A stretch of DNA of 64,000 nt from an uncultured Gemmatimonadales bacterium (GTDB lineage Bacteria; Gemmatimonadota; Gemmatimonadetes; Gemmatimonadales; GWC2-71-9): positions 832,001 through 896,000 of the forward strand of contig CAWCFX010000001.1 in assembly GCA_963795085.1 (NCBI GenBank), given 5' to 3'. Numbering within the stretch: position 1 is the stretch's first letter; each line of letters starts with the position of its first letter. Made by a program: the position numbers. Below are positions 15,001 through 21,000 of this stretch, one piece after another.

Positions 15001-18000
15001 CCGCACCGTGGTAATGCCGCTGGCCAGGTAGAGCACCATTGCGTCCGGATCGACGTGCGCGTGCATGTCAGCCAGTCCCGGGGCCAGGAAGCGGCCGGTC
15101 CCGTCAATCCGCGTCGCCCCGGCGGGAATCCGCGCCTCTCGCGCGGGCCCGACCCACCGGATGCGGCCGCCTTCCACCACCACCGTCTGGCCCGGTACCA
15201 GCGTCCCCGACTCCACGGCCACGAGGGTCACATTCACAAACGCGGTGGCCCCGGCGGCGGAGGGCGGCCCCGGCGCCGGCCGGTCGCTCGCCAGCACGCC
15301 GGCCACGACCAGGCAGGCCATCCATGTATGGGTCATGCCGATTCGCTCCGGTGGCCAGGGTGGGTGGGACGCATGGGGCGAGAGACGGCTGAACCAGCCT
15401 CGTCATGCACAACGAAAGTGCCGCATGGCACAAAGCCCCCGCCGATAGTACGGCGGGGGCTTTGCGGGCGTTTCGCCCGTCAGGGCTGGCCCAGGACCTT
15501 TACCGGCACGCTGCTGTTGTTGAAGGTGCCGTTGCCCAGCTGGCCGAAGGCGTTGTTGCCCCAGCAGTAGAGCGTGGGCGTGGTCGTCGTGCCGCAGGTA
15601 AAGTTGGAGCCGCTGCTGATCACGGTGAAGGTCATGCCGCCGGACACCGGCACCGGGATCTTGCGGTTGGTGGTAGACCCGTCGCCCAGCTCGCCGCTGG
15701 AGTTTTCACCCCAGCAGTACGCGGTGCCGTTCGACGTGAGACCGCAGGTGTGGTTGCCCCGGGCCCGGATCGAGGCGAATACGATGCCGCCCTGCACCGC
15801 CACCGGCGAGGTCCGGTCGGTGAAGGTGTTGTCGCCCAGTTCCCCGTGGGTGTTCATGCCCCAGCAGTACGCGGCGCCGCCCGAGGTGCGGCCGCAGCTG
15901 TGGGCGCCGCCGGTGGTGATCTCGACGAAGCTGAGGCCGCCGGTGACCGCCACCGGGGTGGACCGGTCCACCAGGGTGCCGTCTCCCACCTCGCCCTTGG
16001 AGTTGCTGCCCCAGCACCAGGCCGCGCCGGAGGACTCCAGTCCGCAGGCGTGGGCGCCCCGGGCGCTCAGCGTGGTGAAGGTATGGCCGCCGATGACGGC
16101 GACCGGAATGGTCCGCTTGGTGGTGGTGCCGTCGCCGACCGAGCCCTGCACGTTGCCGCCCCAGCAGTAGGCCGCCCCGGTCGAGACCAGCCCGCAGGTG
16201 TTGTTGAACCCGCCGGTGAGGCTGCTGAAGATCACTCCGCCCAGCACCGGGGTGGGCTTGGTGGCGCCTGGCGAGGCGCCGAGGCCGGCCTGGCCCTCGG
16301 CGTTCCGGCCCCAGCAGTAGGCGGTGCCGTTGGCGGTGAGCCCGCAGGTGTGGGAGGCACCGGGAATGAGCGAGGTGAAGCTCACGCCGGTGGAGACCAG
16401 GGTCGGCACCGCGCTGCTGGCCGACTGGCTTCCGCTGCCCAGCTGGCCGTCGGTGTTGAGGCCCCAGCAGTAGGCCTCGCCGGTGGCGGTGAGCGAACAG
16501 GTGTGGGAATAGCCGCCGTCCGGTGCCGGGAAGGCGAGGCTCAGCCCCACGTTGATGTCACCCTCTCCCGACACGCCCTCCGAGGTGGCGGTGATCTTGG
16601 TCTGGCCGCTCGACTGGCCGGTCACCAGCCCGTTGCCATCCACGGTCGCGATCGCCGTATTCAGGCTGGACCAGGTGACCACCCGGCCCCGCAGGGTGTC
16701 GCCGGTGGCGCTGAGCAGCACGGCGGTGAGCTGGCCGGCGAGGCCGGCGCCGATGGTGGCGTTGGGCGGGGTGACGTGGACGCTGGCCACCGGCAGCAGG
16801 GCCACGGTCACGGTGGTGCTGGCGCTCTTGCCCTCGCTGGTGGCGGTGACCTGGGTGCTGCCCACGCCCACCGCGGTCACCAGGCCCCGGGTGGACACGG
16901 TGGCGGCGCCGCCGTTGGTGCTGGCGAAGGTGACGATCCGGCCGGAGAGCACGTTGCCGTCGGCGTCCTTGGTGACCCAGGTCAGCTGCTGGGTGGCCCC
17001 GGGGGCCAGGTCCATGGCCGGGGGGCTGAGCTCGATCGAGGCCACCGCCACCGTGTTGGGGCCGGACCCGCCGTCGCCGCCGCCGCAGGCGCCGGCCGAC
17101 AGGATGAGAGCGAGCGCGATAACGCGCGAAGGGGAGACGACTGAGCCATGCGCCGCCATGGGTCGAGTTCCTGGTCTGGAGTTGGGCCGTTCGTGGTTCG
17201 GGTTCTGAGACTGCCCCGATGATAGGGGCCGGGGGGGAAATCTCCGGTGGCGGCTGTCACAGGCGGGATGTGACCGGACGTGCCCCGCGGGCGCAACAGG
17301 TGGATGGCACGTCGCCGGACAGTCATTGCGAGGAGGCCGCAGGCCGACGAAGCAATCTGCTCACCAACTCACCCGAACCAGATTGCTTCGTCGCGCTACG
17401 CGCTCCTCGCAATGACTGGGTGGGGTCCAGGGGCCGAGGCAATCTGCTCACCTGATCTCGGACCATGGCAGTCATTGCGAGGAGGCCGCAGGCCGACGTG
17501 GCAATCGCCGTGAGGACAGACTAAAGTCTGCCCTCGGCCGTCCTGTCGCTGAAGCGACGCCGATCGTTGGTGGATGGCACGTCGCTGGACAGTCATTGCG
17601 AGGAGGCCGCAGGCCGACGTGGCAATCTGCTCACCAGGCCTCGTACCCAGGGCAGTCATTGCGAGGAGGCCGCAGGCCGACGTGGCAATCGCCGTGAGGA
17701 CAGACTAAAGTCTGCCCTCGGCCGTCCTGTCGCTGAAGCGACGCCGATCGCGGGTGGATGGCACGTCGCTGGACAGTCATTGCGAGGAGGCCGCAGGCCG
17801 ACGTGGCAATCGCCGTGAGGACAGACTAAAGTCTGCCCTCGGCCGTCCTGTCGCTGAAGCGACGCCGATCGTTGGTGGATGGCACGTCGCTGAACAGTCA
17901 TTGCGAGGAGGCCGCAGGCCGACGTGGCAATCGCCGTGAGCGGACAGACTAAAGTCTGCCCTCGGCCGTCCTGTCGCTGAAGCGACGCCGATCGTTGGTG

Positions 18001-21000
18001 GATGGCACGTCGCTGAACAGTCATTGCGAGGAGGCCGCAGGCCGACGTGGCAATCTGCTCACCAGGCCTCGGACACAAGGTAGTCATTGCGAGGAGGCCG
18101 CAGGCCGACGTGGCAATCTGCTCACCTTGGCCTGAAGCCGGCTTCCTGCCCACCCGAACCAGATTGCTTCGTCGCGCGACGCGCTCCTCGCAATGACTGG
18201 GTTGGGTCCCGGGGCCGAGGCCATCAGCTCACCTATCTCGGGACACAGGCAGTCATTGCGAGGAGGCCGCAGGCCGACGTGGCAATCTGCTCACCAGGCC
18301 TCGGACACAGGGTAGTCATTGCGAGGCGGCCGCAGGCCGACGAGGCAATCTGCTCACCAACTCACCCGAACCAGATTGCTTCGTCGCGCTCCGCGCTCCT
18401 CGCAATGACTGGGTGGGGTCCCGGGGCCGAGGCAATCTGCCGGACGGGGCCGGCTCGGTCACCGGTGGTTACTCCTGCACTTCACTCCTGCACCGGGATA
18501 TTTCTGCTGCACCAGCATGACCGTCATGCTGGTGCAGCAGTACGGTACCGGTGGTGCAGCGGTACGGTTACGCTGGCACTACGGTATAGTGAGGGCCAGA
18601 ATCGGGACCGGCAGCCGGCCGGTCCATCTCCACACCTTGCCAGTCCCCTCCTGCACCCGGGCTGCTCCGCCCTGGCATGGTGAAACGCCACGGTAGTGTG
18701 ACAGCCGGGATCGGATGGTTACGGGGCACCTTGTGGTTGCGAGCGGAGGTATCCGGCCCGGCACCATCCTGGGCACTGATCGGCAATCGGCAGTTGGCAA
18801 TCGGCAATGGCGTAGTTGGCAGGTGGCAGTCGGCAGTCTGCAGTCGGAAATTGAACCGGCTCGCCCTCGGGCCCATATCCTCCTAGCGCAACGCAGGCCC
18901 CGCGATAGATTGTTCCACCCCCACCCCAGATTCAGACGGGAATGCGATCAGCCGGCCGAAGACGCTTCGTCCCCGTGCGGCAGGGATGACGGGCGGGGAG
19001 TTCCAGCGAAGTGATACCACCTCCTCCATCGAGCCCCATGGGCAGCATCGACGCAGCCGGTTCCACCGGCCCCGGGGTCATCGCGGCCTCCGAGACCATG
19101 CAGGCCGTGCTGCGGCAGTGCCGTCACATTGCCGTCACCCGGTATCCGGTCGCGCTGATCGGGCCGACGGGGGTGGGTAAGGGGCTACTGGCCCAGGCAA
19201 TGCACGCCATGAGCGGCTCGGCGCGGGGCCCCTTCCATATAGTGGGGGGCGGGGAGCTGACGCCTTCCCTGCTCCAGAGCGAGCTGTATGGCCACGAAGA
19301 AGGCGCCTTTACCGGGGCCAAGGGTAGGCGGCGCGGGCACTTCGAGCTGGCGGCCGGGGGCACCATCTTTCTCGATGAGATGCACCTGTGGAAACCCCGG
19401 GTCCAGGCGGCCATGCTCCGCGCCCTGGGAGAACGGGCCGTGATCCCGCTCGGGGCCGCCCGTTCCCTCCCCCTCACCTGCCGGTTCATCTTCGCCGCCA
19501 ACCAGCCGCTCGACGACCTGGTCAACGCCGGGATCCTGGTGAAGGATCTTCGTCACCGGATCGGCGAGTTCGAGATCCGGGTTCCGGGGCTGGCCGAGCG
19601 GCCGGGCGATATCATGCCGCTGGCCTATGCCCACCTCGCGCGGGTTGCGTCGGAGAATGGCTATTCCCCCGGTCTCCGGCTGGAGCCGCAGGTGGCGTGG
19701 CAGCTGATCTGGTACGCATGGCCGGGGAATGTCCGGGAGCTGCACAACGTGATCACCCACGCGGCCGTCAGCAGCGGAGGCGAGCCGGTGATACGGTTGC
19801 ATCACCTGCCGGCCAGGCTGCAGAGACCGCTGGTCCAGTTCGATGCGCTGGACAAGTCGGTGCGTCGGGAGATGGTGGGGTGGGCCTACCGGTTTGCCCA
19901 TGGCAGCCGGTTGGCGGCGGCTGACCTGGTGGGAGTGCATCCCCATACGATTGATTACCACGTCCGGCGGCATGGAGCCGGAGCCAGGGTTCCTGGAGCG
20001 GATGCCTGCTGACTTGCGTCACAAAGCCCGCTCCCTGGCCCCTTCACCAACCTCCACGCTGCCAACCACTTGCCCCGCTGCCAATCCGGCATTGTGATGG
20101 CAGGGCGACTCCTCTCCGCTGGCGAATCCGAGATACGAGGATCGGACGCAACAGGTTAGCGCTCCGTGGCGGGACCGCGCCCAATCCGGCATGTCCCCTG
20201 CTTTTCCCCGGCCATCTCCTCCCATCCAGGATTGGCCATGTTCCCTTCCCGCCGCTGGTTCGCGCTGGCCCTGCTGCCGCTCATGTTCTTTCTGCTCCCG
20301 TCGGAACCGGACGTGGAGGAGGAAACTGAAGAGGTGCCGGGCGGAGTGGAGGTAACCCCGGACGCGGGCGGGCCCATCTGACCCTGAGGCAAATACAAGC
20401 GGGCTGGCAGCCGGGTTCTGGGTGAAGAACACCCGAACAGTCACAACCACGTACACTCTGGCCTGCGGAACCGGCGGCGCAGCCACGTCCTGCGAAGTCG
20501 AGCCTACACAGGTAACGTTGGGCTATAATGAACTCACCGACATCAGTGTTACCTACGCAACCGGGGCGGCGGGGTCAGGTTCTCTGGTTCTGCGTGCGAC
20601 CGGAGCAGCGTCGGATACCGGGTACTATAACGTTGTATCCCTGGGGCAAGGATATCCCGGCGTGGTGCTGAAGAATCACAACGACACCAACCGGGACCGA
20701 TCGGGGTGCCTAATCGCAGGAGCGGGAGAAGGTGCGTGGCAATGTGGCGACCTGCTGGTGAGCCACAGCCTGCCGGGCTACACGACCATGGGCCGGGAGC
20801 GATCCTTGACCATGGTCTATACCTCAGCACAGGCAGTTCCCAAGCCCCTGGTTGCGGCCAGTGTCACCAACGGCGATATCTCCCTGCCGGTCAACGTATA
20901 TGCCGAGCTTCGTGTGGGGACAACCGGCGGCACACAGACGGTTCGTGCTACAGGGACGTTCACGGGCTGGAACTTCGATCCGAGCCCTCGGCAGATCGCC

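Follow-up and report, generated by a model that had tools for sequence, protein, structure and literature searches.

Hairpin array in the window and its copies across the genome

The window, a stretch of 64,000 nt from an uncultured Gemmatimonadales genome, holds a cluster of short GTC-tagged hairpin units located between divergent gene starts. The features concerned are:

15480-17159, minus strand: left neighbour, divergent; Ig-like (Big_2) and RCC1-repeat protein, 559 aa (context only)
17322-18409, both strands: hairpin-unit array, a BIME-like mosaic of 13 copies (10 on plus, 3 on minus)
17322-17416: first inverted doublet, GTC ends outward, 23-nt spacer; polarity is that of the hairpins bracketing ssn genes
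17471-18055, plus strand: six head-to-tail copies with four near-identical spacers of 85-87 nt and one of 27 nt
18083-18197: second inverted doublet, 43-nt spacer
18252-18287, plus strand: lone unit within a 63-nt tandem step
18315-18409: third inverted doublet, 23-nt spacer identical to that of the first
19011-20012, plus strand: right neighbour, sigma-54 interaction domain protein, 333 aa (context only)
58646-58770 (approximate limits), plus strand: empty site between the end of a histidine-kinase gene and the start of a TonB_C gene

The array is made up of three inverted doublets, four tandem units of 121-123 nt and three tandem units of 63 nt, and the copies at 17471-18055 are a local tandem amplification. 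A first-pass annotation had given its span as 17322-18342; the start stands, but position 18342 is still within the 12th copy and the 13th was left out; the array in fact runs to 18409. An RHS gene lies near the array. No orthologous array was found by synteny in four congeners, where only the RCC1 gene and some short pieces matched.

Each unit is predicted to fold as a single strand into a 5-bp outer stem, G·A-rich mismatches, a variable inner stem and a C-GNA-G cap. Of 144 distinct units, 123 had inner stems paired along their whole length (mean in shuffles, 6.4), and in 115 of these 123 a C-G pair closed the loop. The doublet at 17322-17416 gave a fold energy of -40.4 kcal/mol (z -8.3). With standard DNA parameters a single unit gave no better a fold than shuffles (z from about 0 to -1.0); the case for the G·A structure is therefore made by conservation and by the general chemistry of G·A pairs. 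The conserved features would be compatible with a hairpin of a DNA strand that contains G·A pairs.

An exact search of the genome returned 58 GTCATTGCGAG cores, matching the earlier count, where an order-4 Markov model predicts 0.73. Of these, 47 belong to full 36-nt units ending in GCAATC, eight to truncated or degenerate units within clusters, and three are isolated 11-mers, probably chance occurrences. The 55 real copies that remain are grouped into 10 clusters within five regions, rather than 58 dispersed sites; four of the five regions lie less than 25 kb from contig ends, and one copy is 66 nt from the end of contig C6. Twenty-five copies are identical, many stand in head-to-tail units, and two inner-stem types and shared spacers are common to separate regions on three contigs. 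The base preceding GTC is A in most copies, and the inner stems differ from those of the congeners' repeats. Thirteen gene-less inverted doublets (><) were counted in the genome, with the same polarity as gene-bracketing hairpins.

Partner nuclease family and its hairpin classes

The GIY-YIG clade that accompanies such hairpins elsewhere has been published as the Ssn family of small ssDNA nucleases (Chenal et al. 2025, PMC11893778), which includes SsnA of Neisseria meningitidis (CDD cd10448) and comes with NTS/SRM hairpin repeats. Partner genes of relatives have PF01541 as their sole domain (92 aa; profile matches of 90-95 aa, below 150 aa), and all 13 rows of A1 have Y6, Y17 and E64 without variation, spaced like the catalytic residues of SsnA. 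The A1 profile matched only two UPF0213 proteins among PDB sequences, and NCBIfam gave no name for any of four proteins. The first-pass annotation had held that GTCAT hairpins bracket this clade, which was borne out on fresh samples of loci, and that only the gene link and its loss were new. As this clade corresponds to published Ssn, the link was known already, and repeat-rich genomes without the gene are likewise described there (PMC11893778).

Within Ssn, one subgroup has the signature K-x-G-[SP]-R where other Ssn have K-x-W-x-R, that is, Gly for Trp at about position 70. Among protein-picked family loci, a GTCATTGCGAG-class hairpin lies within 500 nt of the gene at 21 of 27 Gly-type loci (14 on both sides) versus 0 of 99 others, 54 of which have other GTCA hairpins; at the remaining six Gly-type loci no hairpin of the class is nearby. 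Eighteen further regions had neither a Gly-type gene nor a GTCATTGCGAG-class repeat. The class was found on viral contigs at the single Gly-type locus and at 0 of 27 others, and among the best 29 loci of an alphaproteobacterial order at both Gly-type loci, one Ser-type locus and 0 of 26 others. The pairing held in these two independent samples, except for the one Ser-type locus. Because the class pairs with the Gly-70 subgroup, the exact variant had flanked only 1 of the 74 loci gathered earlier. The reading of the GTCATTGCGAG hairpins as the cognate repeat of a small GIY-YIG clade is well supported, and the pairing is tighter than the first-pass annotation had it.

In the phylogenetic tree, 27 of 28 Gly-type proteins fall on one branch (SH-aLRT 88), and the other, L040, joins Trp-type rows, so the subgroup is not fully monophyletic. 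The Gly-type protein of one congener shows 52% identity to one with flanking NTS-like hairpins and is nested among such rows. Sister Gly-type genes (SH-aLRT 96) stand beside repeats of this kind in congeners G003 and G004. The genes are usually arranged as hairpin>gene<hairpin, the GTC ends pointing outward, a layout seen at 12 of 18 two-sided Gly-type loci and 35 of 42 others, the hairpins usually standing about 20-300 nt from the gene. Among published ssn genes, 71% have a hairpin on at least one side and 42% on both (PMC11893778).

An Ssn gene lay within 38 nt at 5 of 26 repeat-picked genome loci and at none of 151 viral loci (80 with flanks); five plasmid records have a relative. The metagenome link was weak, below the earlier figure of 5 of 80 loci: 2 of 126 among the matches listed, both partial genes, under a slightly wider pattern and with both positives among the 80 loci with flanks.

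Absence of the gene from the assembly and proposed origin of the array

A 32-sequence Ssn profile run in six frames with stops read through, tblastn, the A1 profile and nhmmer with Gly-type genes each recovered, in place of an ssn gene or remnant in this genome, only a YhbQ-like protein (L001). The three PF01541 matches are this protein, YhbQ/UPF0213-like and 113 aa long, and two in long frames. These searches agree with the prior claim that the genome has no gene of the clade; the 93.4% complete assembly has the hairpins of an Ssn system and not its ssn gene. Between histidine-kinase and TonB_C genes, congener G003 has a Trp-type ssn with GTCATCCTGAG hairpins; the corresponding site in the window (58646-58770) has neither, a comparison anchored by the two flanking genes only, with no homology in a forced intergenic alignment. 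No deletion scar was found, since the loci of the congeners' ssn genes are free of repeats in this genome. Four read runs contained 6-9% of the words of window positions 18500-21500, as short scattered pieces.

A repeat-rich genome without the gene is unremarkable among relatives. In a family sample of 301 genomes, 45 were repeat-rich, of which 20 have the cognate gene, nine only another Ssn type and 16 no full Ssn. Gly-type genes occur in 20 of 45 genomes having at least seven repeats versus 2 of 256 having fewer, counts in which kin are not independent, and two Gly-type genes are in genomes without any copy of the repeat. In the published survey, 137 of 169 repeat-rich genomes have an ssn gene and 32 do not (PMC11893778). 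One family member, G087, has a gene truncated to 55 codons beside its repeats. The suggestion that the repeat has outlived its partner gene is a reasonable inference from this truncated gene and from the sister Gly-type genes kept beside repeats in two congeners; the absence from the assembly stands, and gene loss in this lineage is likely.

We hold with fairly good confidence that the array is a REP-like GTC-tagged hairpin cluster of a Gly-type Ssn system, whose ancestral gene probably seeded the copies and was then lost. Published Ssn binds the strand of the hairpin in single-stranded form and makes its cut a few bases 5' of it (PMC11893778); the Gly-type enzymes of relatives would putatively cut ssDNA 5' of the GTCATTGCGAG hairpin. 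An ancestral Gly-type ssn may have seeded singles and doublets by nick-and-repair copying, as RAYTs seed REPINs, and then have been deleted, after which the arrays could have expanded by tandem duplication with no need of the nuclease. The copies are probably passive now.

It is rather unlikely that the lineage never had the cognate gene for these copies and that a few hairpins, brought in by DNA transfer, multiplied through tandem duplication and recombination alone. The confinement to five regions, the 25 identical and many head-to-tail copies, inner stems unlike those of congeners and the nearby RHS gene would fit such a history, but separate regions, on three contigs, have spacers and the same two types of inner stem in common, and two of four congeners have sister Gly-type genes. 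A gene hidden in an assembly gap, with nothing orphaned, is distinctly unlikely. The assembly is incomplete and in six contigs, repeat regions lie near contig ends, including that of C6, and ssn genes are usually close to repeats; against this, the last 47 nt of C6 equal C5 98-144 exactly, suggesting that C6 continues into an ordinary gene, and full Ssn is missing in 11 of 24 repeat-rich genomes of at least 90% completeness. Genomes without full Ssn include G097 (four contigs, 96% complete) and G121 (99% complete, 79 copies).

Service by another resident enzyme is highly improbable. L001 has 42% identity to an Ssn over 66 residues and the genome has four Y1_Tnp matches, yet no GTCATTGCGAG-class repeat is near L001 or the Y1 genes; L001 groups with YhbQ-like rows, separated from Ssn at SH-aLRT 99, is without the C-terminal N-P-x-W-x-D-L motif, and has counterparts in relatives without repeats. 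Conserved 36-nt units in a row and strongly folding doublets could also recall a CRISPR-like locus or an RNA-level role, which is hardly credible given spacers that recur and range from 23 to 87 nt, units on both strands and a position between divergent gene starts. On the evidence of the spacers, a CRISPR array, which would have direct repeats with unique spacers of even length, was rejected.

More tentatively, and with doubt prevailing, hairpin-ssn-hairpin might be a mobile element of about 400 bp, equivalent to RAYT/REPIN but with a GIY-YIG enzyme, and the inverted doublets its passengers that lack the gene. Ssn subgroups would then read distinct non-canonical hairpins, Gly versus Trp near position 70 marking or setting specificity for the G·A-rich GTCATTGCGAG, and orphan genomes would represent the loss phase of a cycle.

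Comparison with known repeat systems

The orphan state itself carries little weight, being common among relatives and already published for Ssn and RAYT. New here is that the GTCATTGCGAG class escapes the published SRM motif and pairs with the Gly-type subgroup, which widens Ssn targets, offers a candidate specificity residue and supplies candidate enzyme/substrate pairs for ssDNA tools. Genome sets with the gene, a truncated gene or no gene could show whether Ssn spreads its repeats, a hypothesis only in the 2025 paper (PMC11893778). That paper alone was relevant among the matches listed for literature from 2023 on the Ssn nuclease, SsnA or cd10448; searches on GTCATTGCGAG gave only papers with unrelated titles, and no paper was found on GIY-YIG genes flanked by repetitive extragenic palindromic repeats.

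The system resembles published Ssn (PMC11893778) in its single-domain GIY-YIG protein of about 94 aa in relatives, with Y6/Y17/E64, in oriented GTC-tagged hairpins flanking the gene, in repeats both clustered and dispersed, and in some repeat-rich genomes being without the gene. It differs in its interrupted, G·A-rich stem and in having no gene in this assembly. A degenerate SRM pattern matched 0 of 84 GTCATTGCGAG-class hairpins versus 20 of 30 NTS-like hairpins, and its 55 matches in this genome included none containing GCAATC. TTGCGAG was not found as text in the supplementary files, and the available part of the published description does not set a Gly-70 subgroup apart (PMC11893778).

CGTC REP families, in the available part of their description, have an unpaired (C)GTC tag and are said to be without a dedicated transposase (Di Nocera et al. 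2013, PMC3733652). As described there, families 1-4 share with the present units the unpaired GTC tag, an A-T stem start, a short 3' tail, inverted dimers and clusters. Their stem is a continuous 8-9 bp with a loop of 4-5 nt, whereas here a 5-bp outer stem is followed by mismatches and an inner stem; the base before GTC is mostly A here.

Membership of REP/RAYT itself was rejected, the tag being GTC rather than GTAG and no copy lying near the four Y1_Tnp matches. RAYT is an HUH Y1 transposase acting on GTAG-tagged REPs, whereas Ssn is a hydrolytic GIY-YIG nuclease not known to have a strand-transfer step. The REP/REPIN/BIME and RAYT system, or REPtron (Bertels and Rainey, bioRxiv 10.1101/2021.07.10.451892), is nonetheless alike in having an enzyme gene flanked by its own hairpins, gene-less doublets and mosaic arrays, and in repeats that persist and decay once the gene is lost.

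Repeat family and window array

The genome assembly comprises 3.89 Mb in six contigs (C1–C6) and is 93.4 % complete. Exact GTCATTGCGAG cores were found 58 times against 0.73 expected, so that the copy number given in the first-pass annotation was borne out by exact count. Full units reaching GCAATC accounted for 47 cores, eight were truncated or degenerate within clusters and three were isolated 11-mers; the 55 real copies formed 10 clusters in five regions.

Repeat regions of the genome
C1 5.8–12.4 kb: repeat region 1
Window 17322–18409: repeat region 2, the window array, 13 copies
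C4 15–25 kb: repeat region 3
C4 754–755 kb: repeat region 4
End of C6: repeat region 5

The window array has a divergent Ig/RCC1-repeat gene on one side and a sigma-54 activator gene on the other. It contains three inverted doublets with outward-pointing GTC ends, in which two inner-stem types alternate, and head-to-tail units (63 and 121–123 nt) with near-identical spacers. Genome-wide, 13 >< doublets were found, with the polarity of hairpins around ssn genes. A 1472-aa RHS-repeat protein is encoded 2 kb from the array (window 20422–24840, + strand).

The variable interior zipped to a loop of ≤6 nt in 123 of 144 distinct units, against a mean of 6.4 and a maximum of 11 in shuffles, kinship between units being ignored. 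An inner tandem GA/GA step was present in 73/144 distinct units, and among the zipped units the loop was closed by C-G in 115 and was a GNA triplet in 60. Both tandem G·A pairs and GNA triloops are stabilising elements in one-strand DNA hairpins. Under standard folding, single units had no folding advantage over shuffles.

Other repeats were also observed. Simple tandem repeats of periods 7, 8 and 9, intergenic in appearance, lie at window 755–981, 2512–2770, 47537–48653, 56126–56282 and 56972–57182, the 9-mer run having an inverted copy just downstream. Outside the window, two DUF559 (PF04480) genes (C6:738791–739063 and C1:683383–683640) are bracketed by a different palindrome family, of CCCCTCTCC...GGAGAGGGG and CCCCCTTCCC...GGGAAGGGGG types, with ~25 related copies dispersed in the genome; this is a parallel pairing of small nuclease and repeat in which the gene is kept. 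Imperfect palindromes of ~100 nt, attC-like in appearance, occur every 400–700 nt at C1 ~1378–1390 kb and C2 ~0.4–11 kb, probably an integron cassette array broken across two contigs (end of C1, start of C2), and also at C1 ~621–627 kb and 1096–1098 kb.

Identity and pairing of the partner gene

The text of Chenal et al. 2025 (PMC11893778) describes SsnA as a 94-aa cd10448 GIY-YIG protein whose cleavage site in ssDNA lies a few bases to the 5' side of an oriented, GTC-tagged hairpin. In our Ssn alignment (A1), Y6, Y17 and E64 were invariant with the published spacing, and a congener protein shared 52 % identity with a protein whose locus carries flanking NTS-like hairpins. Judged by sequence, the partner clade is this Ssn family; the gene–repeat link, earlier put forward as new, thus concerns a clade already described.

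A total of 131 distinct Ssn loci were typed by the residue after REKQ(I/L)K-x, and 126 were counted after five repeat-picked loci were set aside. The residue was Gly in 27 and another, mostly Trp, in 99. A GTCAT(T/C)GCGAG hairpin lay within 500 nt of 21/27 Gly-type loci (14 on both sides) and 0/99 others, 54 of which had other GTCA hairpins. Nine of the 27 Gly-type sequences went into building A1, which affects their ranking but leaves the typing untouched. Neither Gly-type genes nor hairpins of the class occurred in the other 18 regions, which scored lower, a count that leaves out one match in the unpublished genome G212. On viral contigs one Gly-type locus carried the class and 27 other loci did not; among the best 29 loci, of ~115 matches, in one alphaproteobacterial order, two Gly-type and one Ser-type locus carried it and 26 others did not. 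In a quick tree (94 columns, weak resolution) one branch held 27/28 Gly rows (SH-aLRT 88) beside NTS-flanked rows, the exception, L040, being placed among the latter. Gly-type genes in two genomes (L117/L057 in G032; L118 in G125) lie between GTCATCGCGAG...GCGATC hairpins (seven distinct units), a compensatory outer-stem change. The Gly/Trp pairing with hairpin class was not found in the literature searched, including passages of PMC11893778; figures and closed bioRxiv supplements may hold more.

Among repeat-picked loci, a gene was present at 5/26 in genomes (four Gly-type, one cut by a contig end), 0/151 in viruses and 2/126 in metagenomes among the matches listed. The metagenome association was seen, at less than the 5/80 first reported.

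Absence of the gene from the assembly and the probable orphan state

Of three PF01541 matches in the genome, one was L001, a 113-aa protein, and the other two were domains within long frames. Searches with a 32-protein Ssn-like profile (six frames, reading through stops), with these 32 proteins by tblastn, with the A1 profile and by nhmmer returned L001 only, in agreement with the earlier statement that the assembly holds no gene of the partner clade. L001, which we assume to be g00221 of the first-pass annotation, fell among YhbQ/UPF0213-like rows, split from Ssn rows at SH-aLRT 99, had no repeats of the class nearby and matched an Ssn at 42 % over 66 residues.

In the congeners G003 and G004, Gly-type genes whose proteins are sisters (SH-aLRT 96) adjoin such repeats, which differ in inner stems from those studied here. 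Their flanking genes map to repeat-free sites in our genome, so there is no deletion scar. That the gene sits in an assembly gap is improbable. Four of the five repeat regions are close to contig ends and C6 ends 66 nt from a repeat copy, but its final 47 nt match C5 98–144. The proposal that the repeat outlived its gene thus holds as to absence from the assembly; loss from the lineage, an ordinary event, is probable, though unproven.

Across 301 genomes of the family, this one included, 45 were repeat-rich (at least seven repeats): 20 had a Gly-type gene, nine another Ssn only and 16 none (E≤1e-18), and 2/256 repeat-poor genomes had a Gly-type gene. The unpublished members (G018, G212, G223) are repeat-poor, and no claim depends on them. 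No Ssn was found in 11/24 repeat-rich genomes at least 90 % complete or in 7/14 with at least 30 copies; since 17 candidates were scored per genome and most assemblies are fragmented, some absences are false. A relaxed search of five repeat-rich, gene-less genomes recovered an N-terminal 55-codon ssn piece in G087, which lies beside three class hairpins and gives way to unrelated DNA; G087 also yielded Trp-type fragments, as did G235. It gave YhbQ-like matches only in G121 (79 copies, 99 %) and G097 (four contigs, 96 %), and no match in G202 (220 copies). The repeat-richest relatives (G202; G121; G235, 74 copies) include several in which no full Ssn gene was found.

Layout, proposed mechanism and comparison with known systems

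The innermost hairpins faced >gene< in 12/18 two-sided Gly loci and 35/42 others. At window ~58646–58770 a histidine-kinase gene adjoins a TonB_C gene with no repeat between; in G003 a Trp-type cassette (L077) separates the same genes, its hairpin providing the kinase stop codon. Such an arrangement is consistent with the cassette having inserted as one unit, with clean loss as the alternative. Ssn would nick ssDNA immediately outside each GTC end, and the piece may be copied or reinserted through host repair; doublets would be derivatives without the gene, and arrays may grow by tandem duplication whether or not the enzyme is present.

In L077, the gene is preceded by the start of its upstream hairpin in five head-to-tail copies ~30 nt apart, the last alone complete. 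Truncated units at C1:12357 and C4:22218, 22334, 24504 and 24867 comprise the 5' half to about the loop plus 8–14 other bases, the next unit following directly, 30–32 nt on. This pattern matches L077 and is possibly a trace of nick-primed re-copying.

The text of PMC11893778 reports a flanking motif for 71 % of Ssn homologues (both sides, 42 %) and an Ssn homologue in 137/169 repeat-rich genomes, and proposes a domesticated, RAYT/REP-like mobile element. CGTC-tagged REPs have been described without a transposase (Di Nocera 2013, PMC3733652), and Bertels and Rainey (bioRxiv 10.1101/2021.07.10.451892) describe how repeats persist and decay once RAYT has been lost. The published SRM pattern matched 20/30 NTS-like hairpins, 0/101 of the GTCATCCTGAG-like class and 0/84 of the class studied here. 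The array represents a genuine repeat family of the Ssn system, already described, as a variant that the published SRM motif misses, and the enzyme gene is absent from this assembly.
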